Part shown: positions 4,079-37,110 of the stretch, piece by piece
Layout: every line of letters begins with the position of its first letter
Numbering within the stretch: the stretch's first letter is position 1
Assembly: GCA_050012475.1 (NCBI GenBank)
Contig: JBEKHC010000034.1
Location: forward strand, 1 to 46,578
DNA length: 46,578 nt
Direction of reading: 5' to 3'
Origin: Candidatus Velthaea sp.
Lineage (GTDB): Bacteria > Vulcanimicrobiota > Vulcanimicrobiia > Vulcanimicrobiales > Vulcanimicrobiaceae
Translations under genes and position numbers: made by a program
The notes under the pieces: model-generated
Databases searched by the model: none
What the model saw: only the letters and a program-made list of their open reading frames with translations
Told to the model about the DNA's origin: nothing

Positions 4079-4155
4079 CGGGCAGTAGCGCAGCTTGGTA
4101 GCGCATCAGTCTGGGGGACTGGGGGTCGCAGGTTCAAATCCTGTCTGCCCGACCA
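4079..4155 (+). tRNA. tRNA-Pro (GGG)
   Basis: CGGGCAG/CTGCCCG acceptor stem, TCAGT-CTGGGGG-ACTGG anticodon arm, GGTTCAAATCC T-arm, encoded CCA; 77 nt. Confidence 0.97.
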
Positions 4156-14871: not shown

Positions 14872-16956
14872 ATGGATCGTGTCGACCGGCCGAGCGCTCA
14901 GGCCTTACTGGCCGAGTTGGGCTATGAGCCGCGACTTACCATTTACTTGGCAAGCGCGCCCGGAGCCGGCAAGACGTATCGCATTTTGAGCGACGCGGGC
15001 TTTCAGATGCAGGCCGGACGCCGGGTGGCGATCGGCTGGGTCGACACCAAGGGGCGCCCCGATCTCGAAGAGCTTGCGGCCGGGATTCCCCGCATTGCGC
15101 CGCGCCTGTTCTCAGCTGGCCGCGGTGATTTTGAGGATTTCGACCTCGCGGCGGCGCTGGCCAGCGACGCGGAAACGATCGTGCTCGACGAACTCGCTCA
15201 TGCCAATCCCGAAGGGGCTCCGAATGCGAAGCGCTGGCAAGATGCGCTTGCTTTGCGTGCCGCCGGCAAATCCGTGCTCGGTGCGTTCAACATCCAACAT
15301 TTGGAAACGGTCGCCCCGGTTGCCGAGCGCATCATCGGCCATCCGATTCGTGAGATCGTGCCGCTCTCGTTTTTGCGCGACGCCGACGGCGTGATCGCGC
15401 TCGATGTCTCGGTGTCGGTGCTCGAATCGCGGCTGCGCAGCGGCCGTATCGTCCGCATCGACGACGTCGACCGAGCTGCGATGGGGTTGTTCAAGCCGCA
15501 AAACCTGCAATTGCTGCGCGAGTTGTTGCTGCGCACCGTCGACGCCCTCACCGTTCCGGTCGTCAGTCCCGCGAAGACGTCGACGGCGCTGGTGATCGTT
15601 GCGGGCAATGAGGATCCCAAGCCCTATCTGCGCCGGATCGGTGCGCTGGCCGAAGCCTTCGATCTCGCGCTGGAGGCCACGTTCGTCGACGGCGAGCCGG
15701 CCGCCGACGTCGCCGACGCCGTGCGTGCTGCGGCCGGTACCATCATCGAGGTCCCGCCGCACCTGGTCAAAGGCGATCTGAGCGACGTGCGGGCGGCCTT
15801 CGTGAGTGTCCCGATCGGCGAGTTGGCGGCAAAAATTTTGAGCCGTCCGCTGGATCGCGATCTTTTCGTCGTCGATCCGCTGCGTCTGCCCGTCAGCCGC
15901 AGCGCCGGCGGCGCGCGGCATCCGTACGGGCAAACCGCCGGCGACCTGCTGCGCATCGGCTACGGCCGGCTCACGATCTATCTGGGTTCGGTCGCGGGCA
16001 GCGGAAAAACGTACGCGATGCTCGATCGGGCACACGCCCTGATCGAAGAAGGCGTCGACGTCGTCGCCGCGCTCATCGAAACGCACGGCCGCGCCGATAC
16101 CGCCGCCAAGGCCGCCGGCATCGACACCGTGCCGCGGCTGCCCAACGGCGAACTCGATCGCGACGCGGTGGTGCGGCGCCGTCCGGACGTCGTGCTGATC
16201 GATGAACTCGCCCACACCAACGAGCCGGGCAGCGCCTGTCCCAAGCGCTACGACGACGTGATTCGAATCCTGCGTGAGGGCATCTCGGTCATGACGACGC
16301 TCAACGTGCAACACCTCGAAGGTCTGGGCGACGCGGTCGAACGGCTCACCGGGATGCACGTGCGCGAAACGCTGCCCGATACGATTCTCGAAGTCGCGGA
16401 CGACGTTATTTTCATCGACGTTACGCCCGAAGTGCTGCGCGAACGGCTGCGCCAGGGAAAGATCTATCCGGAGGAGCGGATCGAGCGGGCGCTCAGTCAT
16501 TTCTTTCGCGCCGAAAATCTGGCCGCGCTGCGCGAACTGACGGTGCGCGAACTGATGCGCGCGCACAGCGAGCGGCGAGCGGCTCCGCCGTTCTCGCGCG
16601 TCGTCCTCGGCGTGGCGGCGCGCGAGCGCGATACGTTGCTGATCGAACGCGGAGCCCGCTTGGCCGCGCGGCTCGACATCGATCTTTTGGTCATGCATGT
16701 TGCCGCGCCAGGCAAGGAAACGCCGCCGGCGCTCATCGAGAGGTTGGCCAGCGCGACCCGCGTCGGCAAGGGCAAGTGGCGGCTCGAAGTCAACCCCGAA
16801 CCGGCCGCCGCCCTAGCGGCGGCCGCCGGAGAACGCGACGTCATCGTGATCGAGTCGCTGCGCGGGAAACAGCGGATGTTCGGACCGCCGCCGTTCGCCG
16901 TCAAGCTCATCCGCGCCGGCGCGCGCGAGCTGCTCGTCCTCGCCCCGCGTTCATAA
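14872..16956 (+). CDS. kdpD: Soluble KdpD-like protein with two tandem KdpD-N/Usp modules, no TM or kinase domain
   Basis: Two Walker A segments (SAPGAGKT, SVAGSGKT), two DELAH, KRWQD/KRYDD, NIQHLE/NVQHLE. Confidence 0.88.
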   Translation: MDRVDRPSAQALLAELGYEPRLTIYLASAPGAGKTYRILSDAGFQMQAGRRVAIGWVDTKGRPDLEELAAGIPRIAPRLFSAGRGDFEDFDLAAALASDAETIVLDELAHANPEGAPNAKRWQDALALRAAGKSVLGAFNIQHLETVAPVAERIIGHPIREIVPLSFLRDADGVIALDVSVSVLESRLRSGRIVRIDDVDRAAMGLFKPQNLQLLRELLLRTVDALTVPVVSPAKTSTALVIVAGNEDPKPYLRRIGALAEAFDLALEATFVDGEPAADVADAVRAAAGTIIEVPPHLVKGDLSDVRAAFVSVPIGELAAKILSRPLDRDLFVVDPLRLPVSRSAGGARHPYGQTAGDLLRIGYGRLTIYLGSVAGSGKTYAMLDRAHALIEEGVDVVAALIETHGRADTAAKAAGIDTVPRLPNGELDRDAVVRRRPDVVLIDELAHTNEPGSACPKRYDDVIRILREGISVMTTLNVQHLEGLGDAVERLTGMHVRETLPDTILEVADDVIFIDVTPEVLRERLRQGKIYPEERIERALSHFFRAENLAALRELTVRELMRAHSERRAAPPFSRVVLGVAARERDTLLIERGARLAARLDIDLLVMHVAAPGKETPPALIERLASATRVGKGKWRLEVNPEPAAALAAAAGERDVIVIESLRGKQRMFGPPPFAVKLIRAGARELLVLAPRS

Positions 16957-17949: not shown

Positions 17950-19992
17950 TTAGGTGAGATGCAGCGTGGTTAAGATAACGTCGACGAGTTTGATGCCGAT
18001 GAACGGGACGATGATGCCGCCCAGACCGTAGACGAGCGCATTCTCGCGCAGCACCGCGTCGGCGCCGCGCGGCTTGTACGCGACGCCGCGCAGCGCCAGC
18101 GGGATGAGCGCGATGATGATCAGGGCGTTGAAGATGATCGCCGACAGGATCGCGCTTTGCGGCGTCGAGAGCCGCATGATGTTGAGCGCGCCCATGACGG
18201 GATAGGCGGTGGCGAACATCGCAGGCAGGATCGCGAAGTACTTGGCGACGTCGTTGGCGATCGAGAACGTCGTGAGCGCCCCGCGCGTCATCAAGAGCTG
18301 CTTGCCGACTTCGACGACTTCGATGAGTTTGGTCGGGTCGGAATCGAGGTCGACCATATTGCCGGCCTCTTTGGCTGCCTGGGTGCCGGAATTCATCGCC
18401 ACGCCGACGTCGGCTTGAGCCAGCGCCGGCGCATCGTTGGTGCCGTCACCGGTCATCGCGACGAGCCGGCCCGAGCCTTGCTCGCGACGGATCAGCGCCA
18501 TCTTCGTCTCGGGCGTGGCCTCGGCCAGAAAATCGTCGACGCCGGCTTCGGTTGCGATTGCGCTCGCGGTGAGCGGATTGTCGCCGGTGATCATGATCGT
18601 GCGGATGCCCATCGCGCGCAAGCGCGCGAAGCGGTCGCGCATGTTTGGTTTGAGAATGTCTTTGAGGTCGATGGCGCCGAGAATGCCGCGTTCGCTCGCG
18701 AGCAAGAGCGGCGTGGCTCCGGCGCGCGCGATGCGTTCGACGGCGGCGTCGAGCACATTGGTCGCCGAAGCTCCGGGCTGCTGCTGAACCCAGGCTTTGA
18801 CCGAATCCGGCGCGCCTTTGCGGATCTTGCTGCCGTCGGCGAAATCCAGTCCGCTCATCCGCGTGTACGCGCTGAACGGAACGAAGACGGCGCCTTCGGG
18901 AATCTGCGCGCTCGCCGCGTCGGCGCCGGCGCCGGATGCTGCCAGCAGCACGATCGAGCGTCCTTCGGGCGTTTCGTCGGCCAACGACGACAAGTATGCC
19001 GCGCGGTACACGTTGGGTTTTTCCAATCCGGGTGCAACGACGATCTCGGTGGCTTGCCGGTTGCCCAGGGTGATCGTCCCCGTCTTGTCCAGCAGCAGCG
19101 TGTCGACGTCGCCGGCGGCTTCCACCGCGCGGCCGCTCATCGCCAGGACGTTGCGCTGCAAAACCCGGTCCATCCCCGCGATACCGATCGCCGAGAGCAA
19201 ACCGCCGATGGTCGTCGGAATCAGACAGACGAGCAGCGCGATGAGCACGACGATGCTGGGCACGGCGCCGGCATAGATGGAAAACGGCGCCAGGGTTGCG
19301 ACTGCGACGAGGAACACGATGGTGAGTCCGGCGAGCAGAATCGAAAGCGCGATCTCATTCGGCGTTTTTTGCCGCTGAGCGCCTTCGACGAGCGAGATCA
19401 TGCGATCGAGAAAGGATTCGCCGGGATTCGCGCCCACGATGAACTCGATCTGGTCCGAAAGCACGCGCGTGCCGCCGGTCACCGAACTGCGGTCGCCGCC
19501 CGATTCGCGGATGACCGGCGCCGACTCGCCGGTGATCGCCGATTCGTCGACGGTGGCGGCGCCCAAGACCACTTCGCCGTCGGCTGGGATGAGTTCGCCG
19601 GCCGCGACGCGCACGCGGTCCCCTTTGCGCAGCAGGGTCGCGCTGATCGTTTCGACGCGGTCGCCGGCAACGCGTTTGGCCGAAGTGTCGGATTTGGTGC
19701 GCCGCAAGAAGTCGGCTTGGGCCTTGCCGCGGCCTTCGGCGACCGCCTCGGCGAAGTTCGCGAAGACCACCGTGAACCACAGCCAGAGCGAAATCGCGAC
19801 GTCGAAGCTGCCTTGACCGTTGGCGTGCAAAAAGTCGCGCACGGCAAAGATGGCCGACACCAGCGCACCGACTTCGACGATGAACATAACCGGATTGCGC
19901 AGCTGCCAGCGCGGATCGAGCTTTTTGAACGATTCGACGACCGCCGGGGCGATGATCTCGCGGTCGAAGAGGGCGCGTTGACGCGACACCAT
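17950..19992 (-). CDS. kdpB: K+-transporting ATPase subunit B
   Basis: [24 protein letters not shown]. Confidence 0.98.
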
Positions 19993-21692
19993 TAGAATGT
20001 CTCCCCTTTGAGCATCTGGAGGTGCTCGACGATGGGTCCGAGGGCGTCGGCGGGCAAGAACGTTAGCAGCCCGACGATGACGATCACGCTCAGCAGCAGT
20101 GCGACGAAGACCGGCGACGTCGTGGTGAACGTGCCGGCCGTCACCGGCACGGCCTTCTTCCCGGCCAAAGCGCCGGCGAGCGCGATCATGGGCACGATGA
20201 TCGCGAAGCGCCCGAAGAACATCGAAGTGGCGGTGGCGATGTTATAGAACGTGTTGCCCGACAGACCGCCGAAGGCCGAGCCGTTGTTTCCGGTGGACGA
20301 CGAGAAAGCGTAGAGGATTTCCGAGAATCCGTGCGCGCCGTTGTTGCCCAGCGTCGCAAGACCGTCTTTGGCGACCGACGCAATCGCGGTCGGCACCAAT
20401 GAGAAGAGCGGCACCACCAGAATCGCCAAGATCGCGAGCTGGACTTCGCGCCGTTCGATCTTCTTGCCCAGATATTCGGGGGTTCGCCCGACCATCAAAC
20501 CGGCGATGAAGACGGTCAAGATCACGAACAAGATCAAGCCGTAGAATCCGCTGCCGACGCCGCCGAAGATAATCTCGCCGAGTTGAATGTCGAGCATTGG
20601 GATCAGGCCGCCCAGCGGCGTGAACGAATCGTGCTGCGCGTTCACCGCACCGCACGACGTGTCGGTCGTCATCGTCGCGAAGAGCGACGATGCGGCGATG
20701 CCGAAGCGCGTATCTTTGCCTTCCATGTTCGGTCCGGCCACGCCCAGCTGGTGCACGATCGGATTGCCGCCGGACTCAGCGGCATACACGCTGGTAAATC
20801 CCGCCACGAACACCAGCGACATCGCGACGAGCAATGCCCAGCCTTGACGCTGATCCCGAGCGAAGCGCCCGAACGTATACGTCAGCGCGCCGGCGATCGC
20901 AAAGATCGCGAACATTTCGATCAGGTTCGAGAACGGCGTCGGGTTTTCGTTGGGTGAGATCGAGTTCGCGCCGACGAAACCGCCGCCGTTGGTCCCCAGT
21001 TCCTTGATGATCTCCTGCGATGCCATCGGGCCGCCGGTGAGCGTTTGCGTGACGCCTTCGAGTCCCTTGACGTCGATGTACGCGCTGAAATTTTGCGGTA
21101 CGCCCTGCCAGAGCAGCAGCAGCGCGCCGACGATCGAGATCGGTAGCAGTACGTAGAGCGTCGCGCGTGTCAGATCGACCCAAAAATTACCCAAGGTCTT
21201 GCGATCCGTGCGCACGAGACCGCGCATGAAGGCGATCGAAAGCGCGATGCCGACCGCGGCCGAGACGAAGTTATGCCAGGCTAAGCCGATCATCTGCGAC
21301 AGATAGCTCATCGTCGACTCGCCGGAGTAGAACTGCCAGTTGGTGTTGGTGAGAAAGCTGATCGCGGTATTCCACGCCAAGTCCGGGGCGAAGTTCCCGA
21401 AATGCTGCGGATTGAGCGGCAGCCACGCCTGCGTTCGCAGCAGGACGTACAAATAGACCAGGCCCACGAAGCTGAAAGCGAACATCGCCAAGACGTACGA
21501 GCGCCAGCCCATCTCGCGCTCCGGCGAGACGCGGCAGAGCTTGTAGAGCGCGCCTTCGACGGGTGCCAGGACGGGACTGAGAAAGACGCGCTCGCCCGTA
21601 AAGACGCGGTACATGTAGATGCCCAGCGGCTTCACGCACAGGAGCACCAGGCCGAAGGTCAAGGCGGCTTGGAGCCAACCGATCATCGTCAC
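19992..21692 (-). CDS. kdpA: K+-transporting ATPase subunit A
   Basis: [35 protein letters not shown]. Confidence 0.98.
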
Positions 21693-22024: not shown

Positions 22025-22783
22025 ATGCAAGCGATCAGCACGAACTCCGGCCTGGGCGCCGTTTCGCATGTCGATTTCGCTCTGCGGGTCTTCGTCGCGC
22101 TTGTTTTTGGGGCGCTCATCGGTTTGGAACGCCAGTGGCGGCAGCGACTGGCCGGGCTGCGCACGAATGCTCTCGTCGCAACCGGGACGAGCTTATTCAT
22201 TCTCATTACGCCGCTTGTCGGGGGAACGGCAAACCCGACGCAAATTGCGGCCTACATCGTTTCGGGCATCGGCTTTCTGGCCGGCGGCGTCATCTTCAAA
22301 GAGCGCCTGAGCGTGAGCGGCCTCAATACGGCGGCGACCCTGTGGTGCACGGCCGCTGTCGGCGCGTTGGCCGGCTTCGGATTTTTCGTTGAAGCCGCGG
22401 TCGGGGTCGCCGCGGTGCTCGTTGCCAATGTCGTCCTGCGGCCGGTGGTCCGGCGCATCAACCGGCAGCCGCTGGAGGGCACCGAGGTCGTTACCAGTTA
22501 CGAAATCGAGGCAATCTGCCGGCAAGAGGTCGAGGAGCGGATCCGCACGACGACGATTTCTGCGATTCGCGGTGCCGCGATGTCGCTCATCGCCGTCTAT
22601 AGTGAAGACATCCCGTCGAGTGAACGCGTGGAGATCACGGCGGATGTGACCGTCACGGGACGTGCCGACGCGCGGCTGGAAAAAATCGTCTCCAAGATCG
22701 GTCTGGAGTCTGGGGTCTTCGCCGTAAGTTGGAAAGTGGTGCCGACCAGTGACGATGAACGCGAACTGCTATCGGACGCTTGA
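22025..22783 (+). CDS. mgtC: MgtC/SapB family protein
   Basis: IGLERQ...AGLRTNALV, SGIGFLAGG, GLNTAATLW; ACT-like C-domain. Confidence 0.93.
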   Translation: MQAISTNSGLGAVSHVDFALRVFVALVFGALIGLERQWRQRLAGLRTNALVATGTSLFILITPLVGGTANPTQIAAYIVSGIGFLAGGVIFKERLSVSGLNTAATLWCTAAVGALAGFGFFVEAAVGVAAVLVANVVLRPVVRRINRQPLEGTEVVTSYEIEAICRQEVEERIRTTTISAIRGAAMSLIAVYSEDIPSSERVEITADVTVTGRADARLEKIVSKIGLESGVFAVSWKVVPTSDDERELLSDA

Positions 22784-22793
22784 CAAGAGCACG

Positions 22794-22819
22794 CAATCCG
22801 TTTGCGCCGGCGCCGCGTT
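22794..22819 (+). promoter_or_regulatory. Putative ECF-sigma promoter (CAATCC-N16-CGTT)
   Basis: Same motif and spacing upstream of the fasciclin gene. Confidence 0.55.
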
Positions 22820-22831
22820 AAAGCGTCAACG

Positions 22832-24418
22832 ATGAGCGTCCGGCATTGCGCCTTCGCAACGGTGTTTGCGAAGTATCTTCTTTGTTTGATCGTGGTCGGC
22901 TTGGTTGCCTTTGCGCATCCGGCGCAGGCTCATCCGCTCGGTAATTTCACGGTCAATCATCTGACGCGGCTGACGGTCGTCAACGGCAGCATCGACGTGC
23001 ACTACGTGCTGGATTTGGCGGAGATCCCCACCGTCGGGCTCGAGCACGGCATCAGCGCCGACGGCCGGCCGGGCGCGCTGGACTATTCCCGCTGGGCGAC
23101 GGCGCACGCCGCCGCAATCGCGCCGCAGCTCGAGCTTGACGCCGACGGTTCGTCCCTTGCGCTCGAACGCGAGCGCACGTCGCTGCGAACCCGGCCCGGA
23201 GCCGCCGGATTGCGGACGATCTATTTTACGGCCGACTATCGGGCGGCGTTGCCGCCGCATCCGCATCGCTTGGCCTATTTCGATCGAACCGAGGCCGGGC
23301 GCTTGGGCTGGAAAGACGTGGTCCTCGCACCGGCAACGGAACCGACGAACGAATTGCGTGTTTATCCGAATGCGCTCGTCGGTTCACCGCGCAGCCGCTC
23401 GTCGCTGGCCGCGGCGTTCGATGGGGCCGGGGTCGTTCGCCAAACGGCGGATCCGTCCGGCGCTCCGGCGGTACCGCAGGCGTCGGTTGCGCGAATGGAT
23501 GCGCTTTCCGAACTGTTGAGCCGCGGCGACGGCGGCCCGCTCTTTCTGATCGGCGCCTTGCTGCTGGCGGTGGGCCTCGGGGCCTTACACGCACTGGAGC
23601 CGGGCCACGGCAAAACGCTGCTGGCCGTATCGCTGGTCGGCGCGCGTGCGACGGCACCGCAAGCGGTGATTCTCGCCTCGTCATTGACCGTGGCGCATAC
23701 CGTGGGCGTCCTCGCGCTCGGCGTGGTCGTGCTGTTTGCGGCGCGTTGGATCGTGCCCGAAGCAATTTATCCGTGGATCACCTTGGGTTCGGGTATTCTG
23801 GTCGCGATGCTCGGCGCGCGCGCCTTGGCGGCGGAGATGCGCCGGCGGCGGCCGATTGCGCACGTGCACGTCCACGTACACGACCACGCCCATCCTCACG
23901 CGCATGACCATGCGCACGGATTGGGCGTCGAGGAACACGATCACGCGTTCCTTACGGACGAAGCACATGCCCGCGCGCACGCCCCGTCCGGAACGGCTCC
24001 GCTCACCTTTCGCACGGCGGTGATGGCGGCGGCGAGCGGCAACCTCGCACCGTGTCCGGCCGCGCTCGTGGTGCTGCTCGCCGCGATTGCGCTGCATCGG
24101 ATTGCTTTGGGAATGGCGCTCATCGTCGCGTTCAGCATCGGTCTCGCCGCAACGCTGACGGTGCTGGGATTAGCGGTCGTGCGCGGTGCGGCATGGCTGT
24201 CCGGACGGCCGCAATTCGCTTCGCTCGCGCGCTGGGCACCGTTCGCCTCCGCCGCCGCGATCGCGCTCGTGGGTGCGGTGATGGTTGGTGAAGGCCTCGT
24301 CGCGCAAGGCGTTCCGGCGCCGGCGCCGGTCGTCGCCGCGCTGACGTTCGCGGCCATTATCGGTTACGCGTTCGCACTGCCGCACGGGCCGGTCGGGGCC
24401 AGGACGCAACACGTATGA
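22832..24418 (+). CDS. RcnA-like Ni/Co transporter with N-terminal exported domain and His-rich loop
   Basis: Signal AQA|HPLGNF, HALEPGHGKT, HVHVHVHDHAHPHAHDHAH, APCPAAL. Confidence 0.85.
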   Translation: MSVRHCAFATVFAKYLLCLIVVGLVAFAHPAQAHPLGNFTVNHLTRLTVVNGSIDVHYVLDLAEIPTVGLEHGISADGRPGALDYSRWATAHAAAIAPQLELDADGSSLALERERTSLRTRPGAAGLRTIYFTADYRAALPPHPHRLAYFDRTEAGRLGWKDVVLAPATEPTNELRVYPNALVGSPRSRSSLAAAFDGAGVVRQTADPSGAPAVPQASVARMDALSELLSRGDGGPLFLIGALLLAVGLGALHALEPGHGKTLLAVSLVGARATAPQAVILASSLTVAHTVGVLALGVVVLFAARWIVPEAIYPWITLGSGILVAMLGARALAAEMRRRRPIAHVHVHVHDHAHPHAHDHAHGLGVEEHDHAFLTDEAHARAHAPSGTAPLTFRTAVMAAASGNLAPCPAALVVLLAAIALHRIALGMALIVAFSIGLAATLTVLGLAVVRGAAWLSGRPQFASLARWAPFASAAAIALVGAVMVGEGLVAQGVPAPAPVVAALTFAAIIGYAFALPHGPVGARTQHV

Positions 24419-25242
24419 TCGGATTGAGCGCTTTTACGGTGTTCGCGCTGGGACTGCGCCATGGTGCCGATCCCGACCATCTGGCGGCGATCGACAACGT
24501 CACCCGCAATGCCTATGTGAAGACGCCGCTGTTGAGCCGGTTCGTCGGGACGATGTTCGCGGCGGGGCACTCGATCATGGTTCTCGCGCTTTCGGCACTG
24601 GCCGGATTGCTGGGCGCGCGATTCTCGGCGCACGGACAGCTCATCGAAACGGTCGGAACCTGGGTCAGCATCGTTGTTTTGCTCGCGATTGCGGCGCTCA
24701 ACGTGCGCCAATTGCGCAGCGGTAACGGATCACGGCTGGCCGGTGCGAAGACGCGCTTGCTGCCGCGTGCGCTTCGCGAAGGAACCAGTGCGCTGCTCGC
24801 AATTCCGATCGGCTTGCTGTTCGGGTTTGGGTTCGAGACCTCGAGTCAAGTCGCGACGTACGCGGTTGCCTTCGGAGCAGATGCCGGCATTTGGGGCGCC
24901 GTTCTCGTCGGCGCGATGTTCTGCTTGGGAATGATCGTTACCGATACCCTCGATAGCGTCGTCGTCCATCGCTTGATTTCGTTTCGTTCCGATCGTCTGC
25001 CGAAAATTATGCGCATCTGGATCGGCTCGGTGACAATCCTTGCGCTCGTCGTCGCCGTTTATGAGATGTTGCAAGTTTGCGGGTGGCGATCGCCGCTAAG
25101 CGATCTTCAAGTCAGCGCCGTGCTCGTCGCGGCTCTCGCCGCGGTGTTCGGTTACATTCTGGTTCAGACACGCAGACAATTGCACCACTCACCAGCCGAA
25201 GCGCCGCCACCGGCGGCGCTCCCTTCAGGAGATGGTCCATGA
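24415..25242 (+). CDS. NiCoT (HoxN/NixA/HupN) Ni/Co permease
   Basis: LGLRHGADPDHLAAID, FAAGHS, FGFGFETSSQ. Confidence 0.9.
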   Translation: MIGLSAFTVFALGLRHGADPDHLAAIDNVTRNAYVKTPLLSRFVGTMFAAGHSIMVLALSALAGLLGARFSAHGQLIETVGTWVSIVVLLAIAALNVRQLRSGNGSRLAGAKTRLLPRALREGTSALLAIPIGLLFGFGFETSSQVATYAVAFGADAGIWGAVLVGAMFCLGMIVTDTLDSVVVHRLISFRSDRLPKIMRIWIGSVTILALVVAVYEMLQVCGWRSPLSDLQVSAVLVAALAAVFGYILVQTRRQLHHSPAEAPPPAALPSGDGP

Positions 25243-26036
25243 AAGTACGCTCAGGTGCGCTGGGCGGGCTCGCTGCGATTGTTGCACTCGTCCTCACGGC
25301 CGTGGTCTACAATCTGTTGCCCGTTCGCGGCTCCGATCACCAAGATTCACCCACGACCGTCGCCCGTCCGGGTGCAGACATCACCGACGTCTATGTTTAT
25401 CCGGCGGCGAGTCCCGCCAACGTGGTGCTGCAGATGGATATCGATCCGCTGCTTGCGCCGGGCGGCCCGACGTCGACCGCAGCCCTCGATCCCCAAGTTC
25501 TGTATCAGTTCAAGATCGCGCACGGAGCGGCGGGGATCGAAGACATGGTCATTCAGCTGGTCCCGACCGGCGCGGGAACGAGCCAGAAGATCGCCGTGTA
25601 CGGTCCCTTCAAGCCGTCGACGACCGGGACGATGTCGACGATCGGCACCAGTTCGCTGATGGGAACGGTGCCTTTCAATATCACGAGCGGGACGACGCTG
25701 CCGAACGGAATGAAAGTCTTCGTCGGCCCGCGTTCCGACCCGTTCTTTTTCGACCTCTTCGCGTTCTTCAAGTTTCTTCCCGATCGCGACTACAAAACGG
25801 CGGGCACGTCGGCGCCGGCCGGAACCCCGCTCTCGTTCAACTTTACGCCGGCAGAGATCAGCGCGAATCCAGCCTTTGCGACCTGCCTCGTCGGCACGCC
25901 GACCGATGCGCTCTCGAGCAATCACTTCAACGTGCTTTCGATCGTCATCGAAGCGCCGCGAGCGCTCATCGCGCCGAGTTCCGGTTCGTCCAAGATCAAC
26001 GTCTGGGCGACCACATCCACGACGACGGGGGCATAA
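25239..26036 (+). CDS. DUF4331-family protein, N-terminal half (secreted)
   Basis: SDHQDSP, ADITDVYVY, YQFKI, FVGPRSDPFFFD, NVLSIVIE; ATGA overlap. Confidence 0.75.
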   Translation: MKVRSGALGGLAAIVALVLTAVVYNLLPVRGSDHQDSPTTVARPGADITDVYVYPAASPANVVLQMDIDPLLAPGGPTSTAALDPQVLYQFKIAHGAAGIEDMVIQLVPTGAGTSQKIAVYGPFKPSTTGTMSTIGTSSLMGTVPFNITSGTTLPNGMKVFVGPRSDPFFFDLFAFFKFLPDRDYKTAGTSAPAGTPLSFNFTPAEISANPAFATCLVGTPTDALSSNHFNVLSIVIEAPRALIAPSSGSSKINVWATTSTTTGA

Positions 26037-26045
26037 GGAGCAGCG

Positions 26046-26642
26046 ATGCGACAGACACTCATAACGTTCGGCGCCATTTACGCGCTCGTGCTCGGTGCGG
26101 CAAGCTGCAGCGGAAGCAGCACCAACTCGGCGCCGGCGCAAGGCCCCACGCAATACCAGCAGATCGAACGCCTGGCCCGGCCCGCGGTCAAAGAGTTGTT
26201 CCAAGCGTTCGCCAATCACGATGGAACGAATCGGACGTCGCCGGCGGCACAGCCGCTGTCGGGCCAGACGCTCTACACGGCGATCGGCTCGTTCACGACG
26301 TCGGTCGCGGGACGCGACGCGGCGCATGCCGCGACACTTCAGGCGATCCTGATCCCCGACGAAGTCTCCGCCGATCTTTCGCAAGCCGGCACGGGTTCGT
26401 ACCTGGGCGTCGAGACCGGCGGCGCAACCGCCGCCGATAAAGACAAGTTCGGCGGCCGCACGTTAGCCGACGACGTGATCGACATCTCGCTCGGGGCGGT
26501 GTTCGGCAATACGCTCAGCGCGCTGGGCCTCATCCCCGACGACGGCAAAGAAGTTCCATGCCTGACGACGGACAACGTTCCCCAGCAAAATGCGGCCGAC
26601 AACGTTACCACCACCTTCCCCTATGTCGGAGCGCCGCATTAA
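26046..26642 (+). CDS. DUF4331-family protein, C-terminal half (probable lipoprotein)
   Basis: AAS-C lipobox-like; QIERLARPAV, GGRTLADDVID, FPYVGAPH; AGGAG RBS. Confidence 0.75.
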   Translation: MRQTLITFGAIYALVLGAASCSGSSTNSAPAQGPTQYQQIERLARPAVKELFQAFANHDGTNRTSPAAQPLSGQTLYTAIGSFTTSVAGRDAAHAATLQAILIPDEVSADLSQAGTGSYLGVETGGATAADKDKFGGRTLADDVIDISLGAVFGNTLSALGLIPDDGKEVPCLTTDNVPQQNAADNVTTTFPYVGAPH

Positions 26643-27975
26643 CTTCCGGCTCCATTCGAGTTGGCTCGTCGCCGCGACCGCGCTTGCCGCGCTCGCGGCC
26701 TGGCCGCTCGTCTTGCAGTTGCAGACCGGGTCGGCCGCAAGCGCCGATCCGGTCATGCGCTTGACCCCCGCTCCGGTCAAGCCGGACTACCGTTATCGCG
26801 ATTCGAACGTCGCCTTTCTTGAATCGCGCTATAAGAAAAACGCGCAGGATATGATCGTTCCGCGGATGCTTTCGAGCGAATACCTGCAGCGCTACCGCGA
26901 ACGGGGCGACGTCGGCGACGTCCTGCGGGCGCAGGCGGCGGCCCAACAATCGCTGGCCGCGATGCCGCGGGACAATATGGCCGGCGACCTGGCGCTGGCA
27001 AGTGCCGACTTGGCACTCCACCGCTTTCGCGAAGCGCGAGCGCTCATCGAGGCGGCTCGCCGCGTGCAGCCGGATAACAAAGAGTTCGCTTTTAGTGAGG
27101 CGTCCGTCGATCTCGAACTCGGCGACTACGACGCCGCGCGCAAGCTCATCGACGCCAACAGCGGAAAGGGCGCCGGGTCCGAAGACGTCGTCGTCTCGCG
27201 CTGGGATGAAATAACCGGACACGTGTCCGACGCTCGTGCGCGGCTCGATCACGCCATGCACTTCAGCGACAGCCTGTACGACATGCCCGCCGAACGGCGC
27301 GCCTGGTATCACTTCCGTATGGGCGAACTCGACTATCTGGCCGGCGACAATGCGGGGGCGATCGCCGCCGAAGGGGAGGCATTAGCGGTTTTTCCCACCG
27401 ATGTCCTCGCGCTCAACGCTTTGGCGCGTTTTGAATTGGCCGACAAACAGTACGCCGCCGCCGCGCAGGCCGCGCAGCGCGCCGTCGCCCTCGTGCCGTC
27501 ACCGGAAACGCTCGGCATCCTCGCCGACGCGCAAACCGCTCGGGGCGATCGTGCGGGCGGCGACGTGACGCGCGCGGAGCTTGATGCCGAGGCGAAGATC
27601 GGCAACGCGCAGCACGTCAACGACCGGCTCATCGCGGTCTATTTGGCCGATCATGGCGTGCGTCCGTCCGAGGCTTATGCCATCGCGCGGCGCGAACTCG
27701 CGGTTCGCGACGACGTGTACGCCGAAGACACCCTGGCGTGGTGCGCGGCGCGCGCCGGGAAGTGGGACGTGGCCCGCGCCGCGGCAGCGAAGGCGGTGCG
27801 CTTCGACACCGAGGATCCGCGACTTCAGTTTCATGCCGGCGTGATCGCCCAACATTTCGGCGACGCCGCGCAGGCGAATCGCCGTTTTCAGCGCGCGCTC
27901 ACGCTCAATTCGCACTTTTCCGCAACGCAAGCCGACGATGCCCGTGCGCGACTAACCTCGATCTCTTTCCGCTAG
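26623..27975 (+). CDS. Membrane-anchored/exported TPR protein
   Basis: N-terminal hydrophobic helix; repeated TPR-like helices; RDDVYAEDTLAW, FHAGVIA. Confidence 0.8.
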   Translation: MSERRINFRLHSSWLVAATALAALAAWPLVLQLQTGSAASADPVMRLTPAPVKPDYRYRDSNVAFLESRYKKNAQDMIVPRMLSSEYLQRYRERGDVGDVLRAQAAAQQSLAAMPRDNMAGDLALASADLALHRFREARALIEAARRVQPDNKEFAFSEASVDLELGDYDAARKLIDANSGKGAGSEDVVVSRWDEITGHVSDARARLDHAMHFSDSLYDMPAERRAWYHFRMGELDYLAGDNAGAIAAEGEALAVFPTDVLALNALARFELADKQYAAAAQAAQRAVALVPSPETLGILADAQTARGDRAGGDVTRAELDAEAKIGNAQHVNDRLIAVYLADHGVRPSEAYAIARRELAVRDDVYAEDTLAWCAARAGKWDVARAAAAKAVRFDTEDPRLQFHAGVIAQHFGDAAQANRRFQRALTLNSHFSATQADDARARLTSISFR

Positions 27976-28490: not shown

Positions 28491-28681
28491 TCAGCCGTCC
28501 GTCCCATCGCTACGATGATTGAAGCACCTGCGACCAGACTGTCTTTTTGGGCGCCGAGACAGCACTGGCCGCGTTCTCGACGTGAAAATAAGACGAAGCC
28601 GCCGCCCTTCTTGGTCGAGCTTCGACGCTATTTGCAGGCACTCGCGCCCGGCCTTTCGACTTTTAAAGGAAGTTGGGACCT

Positions 28682-29791
28682 TTGATACGTGTACGTCTAC
28701 TGGCAGTAGCGGTATTTGCTGCCAGTCTTGTTGCTTGCGGCGGCGGGGGAAGTAGCGTCAGCACGCTGCCGTCGACCTCGAATACTTCAACATCACCGCA
28801 GAGTGCGGTGACGAGTACGAGCGCCAGCGTTGCGACAACCTTGGATTCGCAGCGCAAGCCCAAACCCACGCCGACGCCTTGCATAGGCTATTGGAAGTGG
28901 GATACTTGGCATTGGTCGTGGTGTGGGTGCCCGTCGCCGGCACCCGCCCCGAGCCCGACGGTCAAACCGACCGTCGCGCCGACGCCGACGCCAAAACCAA
29001 CGGTTGCGCCGACCGCTACGCCCGCTCCGACTCCAAGCCCGACTTCAACTGCTTGTGAAGTAGAAGAAGAGTCGGTCAAACGTCAGGGTCATGGTGGTTG
29101 GAACAATCCTACTCCGGTTCCATGTCCGACAACAACGGCCAAACCGACGAGTGCGCCGACAACTGCGCCAACGGCTACTCCGACGACCGCGCCGACGGTA
29201 GCGCCGACCACGAAACCGACCACTGCGCCCACGGTAGCGCCGACCGTCACGCCGACGACTGCTCCCACGGTAGCGCCGACTGTTGCGCCAACGGTCAAGC
29301 CGACCGTCGCACCCACGGTTGCGCCGACCGTCGCGCCGACCGCTCCGCCGCCGCCGGTGTTTACGTGTCCTTCAGGTTCGGGTGGTACGTATAGTACATA
29401 CACCTTTAACCCATCTGGTGGAACGCTTCCCTTCTCGAGTGGCGGCATTTCGGCAACGTTTCATTATCCAGCCAACACGGCGTCCGGTGGCCAACCGTAT
29501 GTCGCTTGTGTGAATGCAACCGCGTTCTCTGGTACCTTGTTCGTTACGGTGGAACCAGCGGAAGAGGAAACTCAAAATCTTACGTTCGCTGCGGGTTCGG
29601 AATCAACCACGGCTACCAGCAGCACGTATGCTGTTGGCAATGTCATCGAAGAAACGGACACCGCTCAATCCCAGAACGTCACCGTGACAACTGCTGGTAC
29701 GGTAACATTCACGACGAAGGTGTTCGCTGGTCTGACATTAACACCGATCGGCGAAGTCCAGATTACCATAGAGCCGGTGACGCCTACATAA
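28682..29791 (+). CDS. Pro/Thr-rich repeat lipoprotein
   Basis: LVA-C lipobox; many APTV/APTT/KPTV tetrapeptide repeats; beta-rich C-domain. Confidence 0.8.
   Translation: MIRVRLLAVAVFAASLVACGGGGSSVSTLPSTSNTSTSPQSAVTSTSASVATTLDSQRKPKPTPTPCIGYWKWDTWHWSWCGCPSPAPAPSPTVKPTVAPTPTPKPTVAPTATPAPTPSPTSTACEVEEESVKRQGHGGWNNPTPVPCPTTTAKPTSAPTTAPTATPTTAPTVAPTTKPTTAPTVAPTVTPTTAPTVAPTVAPTVKPTVAPTVAPTVAPTAPPPPVFTCPSGSGGTYSTYTFNPSGGTLPFSSGGISATFHYPANTASGGQPYVACVNATAFSGTLFVTVEPAEEETQNLTFAAGSESTTATSSTYAVGNVIEETDTAQSQNVTVTTAGTVTFTTKVFAGLTLTPIGEVQITIEPVTPT
29140..29345 (+). repeat. Degenerate 12-bp coding tandem repeat (xPTx)
   Basis: Repeated GCGCCGACGGTA-like units. Confidence 0.8.
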
Positions 29792-30228: not shown

Positions 30229-30813
30229 CTAGGGCATCAGCACCGTGTCGACGACGTGGATGACGCCGTTGGACTGATACACGTCGCCGATGGTCACGCG
30301 CGATTGATCGCCTTTGGCGTCGGCGAGAACGAGCGTTTTGCCGTCCATCGTCGCGGTCAGATCTTCCCCTTGCACCGTTTTCAGCATCGCCTTGCCGCCG
30401 CCGGCTGCGATCTGTGCGGCGAGTGCTTTTGAATCGAGGCGGCCCGCCACGACGTGATAGGTGAGAATTTTCGTTAACGTCGCTTTGTTTTCGGGTTTCA
30501 CGAGCGTATCGACCGTGCCGGCGGGAAGTTTGCCGAAAGCTTCGTTCGTCGGTGCGAATACGGTGAATGGCCCCGGTCCGTTGAGCGTATCGACGAGTCC
30601 GGCGGCTTTGACGGCGGCGACGAGTGTCGTGTGGTCGTCGGAGTTGAGTGCATTGGCGACGATCGTTTTATTCGCATACATCGCGTGGCCGCCGACCATC
30701 GGATCCTGCATACCGCTCATCGCATCGCCCATTTTCTCGGTTGCGAATGCCGGTGCGATGGACAACGTAAGGGCGCACAACGCGGCTGCAACCACGTGTT
30801 TGGTTCTGTTCAT
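30229..30813 (-). CDS. Secreted fasciclin (FAS1, MPB70-like) protein
   Basis: Signal AFA; GPFTVFAPTNEAF, ILTYHVV, SNGVIHVVDTVLMP; GGGAGA RBS before ATG 30813. Confidence 0.95.
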   Translation of the reverse strand: MNRTKHVVAAALCALTLSIAPAFATEKMGDAMSGMQDPMVGGHAMYANKTIVANALNSDDHTTLVAAVKAAGLVDTLNGPGPFTVFAPTNEAFGKLPAGTVDTLVKPENKATLTKILTYHVVAGRLDSKALAAQIAAGGGKAMLKTVQGEDLTATMDGKTLVLADAKGDQSRVTIGDVYQSNGVIHVVDTVLMP

Positions 30814-30871
30814 TTGGTTCTCCCGTGATAAAAAGTTGTAGGCGGGGACTGCAGCGCGCTTCGATAACCAC

Positions 30872-30897
30872 AACGCAGCTCACGGCGCCATGGATGT
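30872..30897 (-). promoter_or_regulatory. Putative ECF-sigma promoter (ACATCC-N16-CGTT)
   Basis: Matches motif and spacing at 22794-22819. Confidence 0.55.
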
Positions 30898-30933
30898 ATT
30901 CCGAACGCCATAGATTGGGCAAGCCGAATCCGG

Positions 30934-33096: not shown

Positions 33097-33137
33097 GCGA
33101 GGTGACCTCTCTCCCCTGGGAGGACCTTGCCTTTTTT
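33097..33137 (+). terminator. Attenuator-like hairpin plus T-tract in rpoB leader
   Basis: GCGAGGT..CCTC/GAGGACCTTGC followed by CTTTTTT. Confidence 0.55.
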
Positions 33138-33195
33138 CATTTCACCGCGCATAGACCGGCACCAACGCTTCGCGAGAGTAGTTATAACAGAACTG

Positions 33196-37110
<3,915 letters not shown>

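Follow-up and report, generated by a model that had tools for sequence, protein, structure and literature searches.

Few nickel proteins are known, and the metal supply of secreted ones has barely been described. Among the known systems closest to the operon described here are the anglerases; according to the main text of Franco Cairo et al. (2025, PMC12537917), Ang-1 (9GCE) is fused to a HupE/UreJ-2 permease and binds copper (74 nM) and nickel (220 nM) through its His1. RcnA, a nickel/cobalt exporter in E. coli, has been proposed to supply periplasmic nickel in cable bacteria (PMC11247825), and in copper delivery to the cbb3 oxidase CcoI hands the metal via the cytoplasm to SenC, a CcoI-SenC fusion being functional (PMC8475189). 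Here, we describe an operon of five genes, g1 to g5 (Table 1), in a window of 46,578 nucleotides (nt) from Candidatus Velthaea sp. (phylum Vulcanimicrobiota; contig JBEKHC010000034.1, positions 1 to 46,578). It encodes an RcnA-like permease with an exported domain, a divergent permease of the nickel/cobalt transporter (NiCoT) type, the uncharacterized protein DUF4331 in two halves, and a tetratricopeptide repeat (TPR) protein. The operon might represent a pathway dedicated to loading secreted DUF4331 with a divalent transition metal, probably Ni2+, outside the cytoplasm, a reading that we regard as standing at about an even balance. Its parts are of known kinds (anglerase, RcnA, NiCoT, SigK regulon), and the whole system is undescribed in the searchable literature. 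The searched main texts, to which subscription journals and supplements do not belong, nowhere name DUF4331/PF14224; one supplement, that of PMC7826278, names DUF4331. The likeness to CcoI-SenC is one of logic only, in that an exporter hands cytoplasmic metal to a periplasmic chaperone; there is no homology, and a P1B-ATPase and Cu(I) are found there, secondary permeases here.

Like Ang-1 and Ang-2, g1 has a signal peptide, a His1 and an immunoglobulin-like beta-sandwich, which a flexible linker joins to a membrane permease; in g1 this is an RcnA-like NicO permease with a His-rich loop. Signal peptide cleavage was assigned by eye behind AQA in AQA-HPLGNF, and His1, Asn5, Asn9, His10, Asp28 and Glu31 of the exported domain are invariant in 91 aligned rows. 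An AlphaFold2 (AF2) model of this domain is a beta-sandwich with a predicted local distance difference test (pLDDT) score of 88.7, and its top match in the PDB is Ang-1 (Foldseek E 1.5e-6; VIA Z 9.5, root-mean-square deviation (rmsd) 3.4, 136 aligned; next match Z 7.2), followed by the Zn-binding ZrgA and PA4063. In contrast, a sequence profile search with g1 gave no significant PDB match and none to 9GCE, and NicO is the only one of the two permease families among its Pfam matches, HupE/UreJ-2 (PF13795) being absent. The HupE/UreJ-2 version is used by DUF4331 operons of Pseudomonadota. The main text of the anglerase paper mentions neither DUF4331 nor NicO, and no TPR partner is among the neighbours named there. 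In design, g1 would function like an anglerase-permease fusion, yet it is outside Ang-1/Ang-2 as defined. With RcnA of E. coli and its cable-bacteria homolog (PMC11247825), g1 has in common the HALEPGH motif, the His-rich loop and the NicO family; it differs by the exported His1 domain, a score below the family cut-off, the co-encoded importer and a promoter of the extracytoplasmic function (ECF) type. By analogy to RcnA the His-rich loop, the length of which differs among g1 homologs, would be cytoplasmic. Homologs of 730-880 amino acids (aa) from L109, L121 and other Acidobacteriota have an extra C-terminal part past the RcnA-like domain.

For g2, all four signature regions of the NiCoT importers HoxN, NixA, NhlF and NicT (motifs from Table 2 of PMC7689651) are recognizable: GMIVTDTLD in transmembrane helix (TM) 6 is an exact signature and FAAGHS in TM3 agrees at its core, while RHGADPDHL in TM2 and FGFETSSQ in TM5 keep the key His, Asp and Glu-Thr and differ at other positions. 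Unlike these importers, g2 is short and scores 80.2 against a cut-off of 333 for NCBIfam HoxN/NixA (TIGR00802), just as g1 scores 130.8 against 195 for NCBIfam RcnA (PRK10019); hence, each of them is a divergent NicO family member. In related operons g2 is replaced by a canonical NiCoT of the HoxN/NixA type, located after or beside the TPR gene, to which it is 33% identical over 209 aa; the replacement that was checked, from L043, passes TIGR00802 with 390.5.

The gene structure agrees with the initial annotation, which had been made from the sequence alone and described five co-oriented genes with ATGA overlaps or short gaps. The open reading frame coordinates place ATGA overlaps at the g1/g2 and g2/g3 junctions and a spacing of 9 nt, with AGGAG inside the gap, between g3 and g4; the 5' end of g5 runs into the 3' end of g4 by 20 nt with the ATG at 26623 or 53 nt with that at 26590. 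The motifs quoted at that time were recovered at aa 253-261 of g1 (HALEPGHGK) and aa 15-22 of g2 (RHGADPDH), the extra exported domain and the His-rich loop of g1 are both present, and the profile check it had suggested returned NicO (PF03824) for g1 (31.3 bits, cut-off 27.7) and g2 (74.1 bits), DUF4331 (PF14224, cut-off 27) for g3 (89.9 bits) and g4 (58.3 bits), and TPR for g5. The labels RcnA and NiCoT hold at the level of the NicO family in Pfam and fail at the NCBIfam cut-offs given above. The proposed division of DUF4331 between a secreted protein and a lipoprotein is evident from complementary profile ranges, 1-238 in g3 (best stretch 123-238, with 1-76 also matched) and 244-421 in g4, and from the lipobox AASC of g4. 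The g3/g4 junction is bridged without an indel by metagenome contigs of two of four runs (X1 and X4; soil/peat), X1 possibly being the source sample, and the same split pair occurs in 37 of 40 further loci chosen by g1, which together rule out an assembly error as the cause of the split. Five real genes and a split site conserved across Vulcanimicrobiota are thereby confirmed.

The two halves were supposed to make up one protein, and indeed they match the single beta-sandwich chain of close relatives. The single-chain homolog of locus L071 is 48% identical to g3 and 60% to g4, and its model (pLDDT 94, predicted template modelling score 0.92) places the split site between two adjacent strands, with beta-sandwich structural matches that cross this site and reach residue 306-323. 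From this we predict that the sheet of the N-half is completed by the C-half, with g4 supplying the strand that closes the g3 beta-sandwich. Each half holds one Cys in 53 of 60 scored DUF4331 pairs, which suggests a disulfide across the split; in g3 it is the single Cys216 (25884-25886), and g4 has Cys172 (26559-26561) besides the lipobox Cys21 (26106-26108); a Cys216-Cys172 bond probably locks both halves together. Both conserved Cys are missing in two single-chain homologs (L056, L072), the C-half Cys is absent from four split pairs, whose N-half region has two Cys instead (one pair is frameshifted, and they are probably one clade), one of the 60 pairs is truncated, and four N-halves were found without a partner. 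To tether a secreted protein by dividing it within a beta-sandwich and anchoring its second half anew, as a lipoprotein, is uncommon.

A fixed feature of DUF4331 is its N-terminal His. Predicted cleavage of g3 behind VRG, in front of SDH, leaves a mature Ser-Asp-His end (25332-25340), and His3 in mature numbering is invariant (70/70), with Asp16, Asp19, Asp133, Asp138, Arg329 and Asp367 (L071 numbering) conserved as well. Gly, Ala or Ser stands directly before Xaa-Xaa-His in 168 of 170 homologs. A search with a signal-less paralog found the N-terminal motif within 62 of 150 matches; the His was aligned in 53, and in 44 of these it is residue 4 (M-x-x-H), mostly as MSHH or MSDH. The N-terminal Met is removed when a small residue comes next, and therefore secreted and signal-less DUF4331 would both expose His at position 3. 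A His at position 3 of a free N-terminus defines the amino-terminal copper- and nickel-binding (ATCUN) motif (PMC12509749), and the mature end of DUF4331 is predicted from its sequence to be an ATCUN-type tip in secreted and signal-less forms alike. With regard to the fold, the sequence profile of DUF4331 gave no significant PDB match, and Foldseek with the model gave none at E 0.001 or better, which does not establish a new fold. The best matches are DOMON/CBM9-like domains with middling scores, namely Sas6 (7uwu; Z 8.1, rmsd 5.1, 200 aligned), glucodextranase (1ulv; Z 6.6), ethylbenzene dehydrogenase (2ivf_C; Z 5.7) and CBM9 (1i82; Z 5.6). These domains show no sequence match, and DUF4331 differs from them by a large helical extension, the N-terminal Xaa-Xaa-His and the natural split inside the sandwich.

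Several further DUF4331 copies were seen. This genome (G000) has two signal-less paralogs starting with MSHH (G000:C105:1183-2157 and G000:C9:39851-40918); the former precedes an alpha/beta-hydrolase-like gene, an order that recurs, with a HoxN permease added, at locus L167 on a Rhizobium plasmid. A second copy, single-chain or split, stands beside the first in L056, L057, L183, L184, L196, L197, L199 and L207. On an Adhaeribacter plasmid (L164:5902-8322), DUF4331 carries a C-terminal sorting domain for type IX secretion and is divergent from a TonB-dependent receptor; hence, it is likely surface-exposed in Bacteroidota.

The TPR protein g5 begins with a hydrophobic anchor or signal, and it had been regarded as a scaffold. 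This role is in line with a predicted binding of DUF4331, modelled on the homologous pair of L071: the complex scored 0.86 (best of three controls 0.00), with at least 65% contact agreement between runs and partner pLDDT of at least 90. Among solved pairs 116 of 157 attained the score mark used, as did 2 of 215 mismatched ones; these counts are only rough with the alignments used here. The interface is nearly all on the N-half and includes residues 9-14, adjoining the N-terminal tail. The model supports the notion that the TPR protein binds DUF4331.

The association of these genes extends well beyond the window, to many soil bacteria. Among 201 genomes of the phylum (one of them, G128, unpublished; kin are not independent), 104 have DUF4331 and 89 have g1; 87 of the 89 g1 genomes also have DUF4331, and neither gene was found in 95. 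From about 60 further g1-bearing genomes of the class, 40 loci were picked by g1 with different genera favoured; they contain the TPR gene in all 40 cases, DUF4331 in 38, and a NiCoT in 35 (19 of the g2 type and 16 of the canonical HoxN type). Of 556 GTDB DUF4331 loci beyond the phylum, the best 80, mostly from Acidobacteriota, include TPR in 63; a g1-like gene is present in 33 of them and HupE/UreJ-2 in 6, a count from which two 144-aa opposite-strand 'HupE' matches (L096, L098) were excluded as spurious. On plasmids, 10 of 42 records were inspected and a permease adjoins DUF4331 in 7: RcnA-like in Streptomyces and Nostoc, HoxN in Rhizobium and, in four Pseudomonadota, HupE/UreJ, which was identified by Pfam in two and from the annotation in the other two. 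RcnA-like, HupE/UreJ-2 or HoxN permeases adjoin DUF4331 in Acidobacteriota, Actinomycetota, Cyanobacteriota and Pseudomonadota, and the locus counts indicate that the DUF4331-TPR pair is the core beside which three kinds of nickel-type permeases have been recruited. The neighbourhood survey that had been suggested, namely of DUF4331 next to nickel/cobalt transporters, therefore revealed an enrichment beside permeases of this type, and the initial interpretation of the locus as a nickel/cobalt (or copper) handling module with an extracytoplasmic DUF4331 is supported. New relative to it are the ECF-type promoter, the anglerase-like fold predicted for the exported domain of g1, and the N-terminal Xaa-Xaa-His.

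Whether the module supplies DUF4331 or is served by it had been left undecided, and our survey of metal consumers favours supply, without proof. It covered 129 genomes of two operon-carrying families, this genome included, 79 with and 50 without the operon. Nickel superoxide dismutase (NiSOD) occurs in 0 of the 129, which removes it as metal client in the two families. Of 48 operon genomes without HypD or urease, nine have LarA, acireductone dioxygenase (ARD), CbiC or nitrile hydratase, and all seven nickel/cobalt consumers (HypD, urease, NiSOD, LarA, ARD, CbiC and nitrile hydratase) are missing in 39 of the 79 operon genomes. This favours a client inside the operon, for which DUF4331 is the likelier candidate. 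A single genus, labelled g4 (a genus label, not the gene), accounts for 25 of the 48; its inspected operons mostly come with a canonical importer, which is kept in the operon in 10 of 10 loci assignable to it among the first 15 of the 40-locus set.

The operon is preceded by a predicted promoter of the ECF18/19 (SigK-like) type, which is the top-scoring among 265 motif sites of this genome. The motif ATCC-N16-CGTT precedes 48 of 59 g1 homologs, against a background of 0.0018 per slot. A looser version was found ahead of DUF4331 in 67 of 88 loci, which nearly all come from other phyla, compared with 1 of 88 within the gene. The motif agrees with the ECF18 consensus of a GCATCC-like -35 and a CGTA-like -10 element (PMC13492112, Table 4; supplement of PMC7826278), and the latter supplement lists DUF4331 at +2 of ECF18s13 and near ECF214s1. 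The single RskA gene of this genome (RskA_C) adjoins an ECF sigma gene at G000:C26:2845-4244 with the motif upstream. Common to this genome and the SigK-RskA (ECF18/ECF19) regulons are the promoter ATCC-N16-CGT(A/T), the anti-sigma factor RskA and a fasciclin target; in contrast to them, the sigma factor here has no Cys, hence it is without the SigK redox disulfide, which needs a cysteine pair in sigma4 that only some subgroups have, and it is below the NCBIfam cut-off for SigK. RskA was discarded as a co-occurrence marker, because it is near-universal in the class and thus uninformative. A fasciclin gene in the window with the same promoter motif is likely co-regulated with the operon, of which it is not a member. 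Fasciclins are known SigK/ECF18 neighbours and targets (PMC9861118; supplement of PMC7826278), and fasciclin targets are induced by light in M. kansasii (PMC9861118), while the signal of SigK is still unknown (PMC7509140). The motif is also located upstream of a cytochrome b561 and molybdopterin oxidoreductase pair (G000:C48:67-1658), SCO1/SenC (G000:C39:76941-77618) and a TonB-dependent receptor (G000:C98:13081-15498). These candidates were chosen by plausibility among the top 45 of the 265 sites, and given this post hoc choice and the many chance sites the wider regulon is only a lead. Rfam gave only tRNA and no riboswitch across the window and five loci, and a scan for sigma-70 promoters and terminators gave nothing useful.

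Taken as a pathway, loading could proceed as follows. A SigK/RskA-like ECF sigma factor would switch on the operon, the motif being found and its activity assumed, and the permease g2 would import the metal, a direction that follows established knowledge on NiCoT. The RcnA-like g1, with a direction taken from RcnA, would gather the metal on its His-rich loop and re-export it to its own anglerase-like His1 domain. The membrane-anchored TPR protein g5, as in the predicted complex, would hold DUF4331 close to its N-terminal tail for loading, and DUF4331 would be assembled from the secreted N-half and the lipid-anchored C-half that completes the beta-sandwich. The metal would bind at the predicted N-terminal Ser-Asp-His tip. 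In this scheme we infer metal binding, the transport directions, the disulfide, sigma control and client status. As loaded metal, nickel is in our estimate somewhat favoured, copper is possible with clearly lower probability, and cobalt appears unlikely. Judging by further genes that share this promoter, we guess that metal-loaded DUF4331 might have an envelope-protective or redox function. Going further, DUF4331 might be a widespread family of nickel enzymes, in which the N-terminal ATCUN site is completed by the invariant acidic residues, the operon serves as a machine for import, re-export and loading, and the enzyme defends the envelope under a SigK-type sigma factor; we regard this extension as rather unlikely.

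Several observations weigh against a loading pathway. In the main text of their paper, the anglerase authors propose capture and uptake, which is the opposite direction (PMC12537917), and the fused permease in Pseudomonadota is HupE/UreJ-2, annotated as uptake type. HypD or urease is somewhat more frequent with the operon (31 of 79 genomes) than without it (10 of 50; p 0.03, although kin are not independent), and hydrogenase and urease both occur in this genome. The surveyed genomes are 91-99% complete, and nickel-glyoxalase I, cupins and other minor clients were outside the consumer set. A g1-like or HupE/UreJ-2 permease within 8 kb is lacking in 41 of the best 80 GTDB loci, no permease stands beside DUF4331 in 3 of the 10 inspected plasmid loci, and no NicO gene is near either signal-less copy of this genome. 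The TPR complex was modelled on a pair that is 47-60% identical to the chains of the window. Finally, NiCoT-DUF4331 fusions make up 20 of 54 longer homologs (a DUF4331-TPR fusion, 1 of 54), but those inspected retain the internal Met and the signal peptide and look like in-frame read-through; their Rosetta-stone value was hence downgraded to weak, and they show tight coupling and not a new domain architecture.

Some of these observations would fit the main alternative, a high-affinity scavenging uptake. Here DUF4331, on the TPR protein and the lipoprotein half, would trap periplasmic nickel, cobalt or copper like a solute-binding protein, and the anglerase-like domain would relay the metal to importing permeases. 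We consider this doubtful but worth attention: it corresponds to the anglerase model of capture and assimilation, agrees with the mild hydrogenase/urease enrichment and suits the canonical importer, and in some cases also a TonB-dependent receptor, at the same locus or under the same motif, whereas the 39 operon genomes that lack all tested consumers weigh against it. Moreover, a mere carrier has no obvious need for the many invariant polar residues of DUF4331, and signal-less DUF4331 with the same tip cannot work in the periplasm. It is improbable that the operon confers metal resistance by g1 exporting surplus nickel or cobalt like RcnA and DUF4331 storing it in the periplasm. The RcnA-like character of g1 with its His-rich loop and the reported role of the ECF18 sigma factor RpoP in nickel/cobalt resistance of Cupriavidus (supplement of PMC7826278) point in this direction; however, g1 does not reach the RcnA cut-off, and in 35 of 40 loci the operon retains a high-affinity importer, of which there are two independent forms, and this is hard to fit with detoxification. 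There is also a slim chance that DUF4331 is a DOMON/CBM9-like envelope protein that binds sugar or heme within a stress regulon, that the permeases serve another role such as redox or cofactor transfer, and that the His tip is no nickel or copper site. This would suit the best fold matches, a Met conserved in 67 of 70 DUF4331 proteins, the matches of g1 relatives to DsbD_2, and the motif before the cytochrome b561/molybdopterin oxidoreductase pair and fasciclin. On the other hand, the Z-scores of the DOMON/CBM9-like matches are middling and tie with those of immunoglobulin domains, some members naturally have Val in place of the Met, the membrane part of g1 has a single Cys, and the fixed His at position 3 together with three separately recruited nickel-type permeases would remain unexplained.

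If the loading pathway is true, it would assign a function to a family present in roughly half of the 201 genomes of this soil phylum and in at least five other phyla, and it would extend the anglerases to a second permease family. It would also account for the nickel/cobalt importer kept in many genomes without the usual nickel/cobalt enzymes, and make metal supply a testable lead for the signal of SigK/RskA-type sigma factors.

Table 1. Positions of the operon genes and associated features in the window
Feature	Position	Strand	Description
g1	22832..24418	+	528 aa; alternative TTG start 22802
g2	24415..25242	+	divergent NiCoT-type permease, 275 aa
g3	25239..26036	+	secreted N-half of DUF4331, 265 aa
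g4	26046..26642	+	lipoprotein C-half of DUF4331, 198 aa
g5	26623..27975	+	TPR protein, 450 aa; alternative start 26590
g1 exported domain	22931..23470	+	predicted mature start H-P-L-G-N-F
g1 His-rich loop	23858..23980	+	14 His in 41 aa (aa 343-383), between membrane helices
Predicted ECF18/19 (SigK-like) promoter GCAATCC-N16-CGTT	22793..22819	+	12 nt before g1 ATG
Fasciclin gene 30229-30813 with the same promoter motif 30872-30898	30229..30898	-	Pfam and motif scan

Upstream of the operon, the window contains a kdpD-like sensor gene (14872-16956), minus-strand kdpA/kdpB-like genes (17950-21692) and mgtC (about 22025-22783), a block that ends 48 nt before g1. The kdp/mgtC block is not kept with the operon; mgtC and kdp genes were rejected as operon members, as the neighbourhood census gave no recurring mgtC or kdp cluster. 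Downstream, a gene on the plus strand (28673-29791) encodes a predicted lipoprotein (lipobox LVAC) that combines long Pro/Thr repeats with a WKWDTWHWSW stretch and has a C-terminal part of lower GC; no Pfam family scored above its cut-off. The rpoB gene (33127-37110) and one tRNA gene (4079-4152) are ordinary housekeeping genes. Elsewhere in the genome, G000:C39:81351-84459 contains genes that seem to encode an encapsulin shell of family 2A together with a cysteine-desulfurase-like cargo that is long and Pro-rich.

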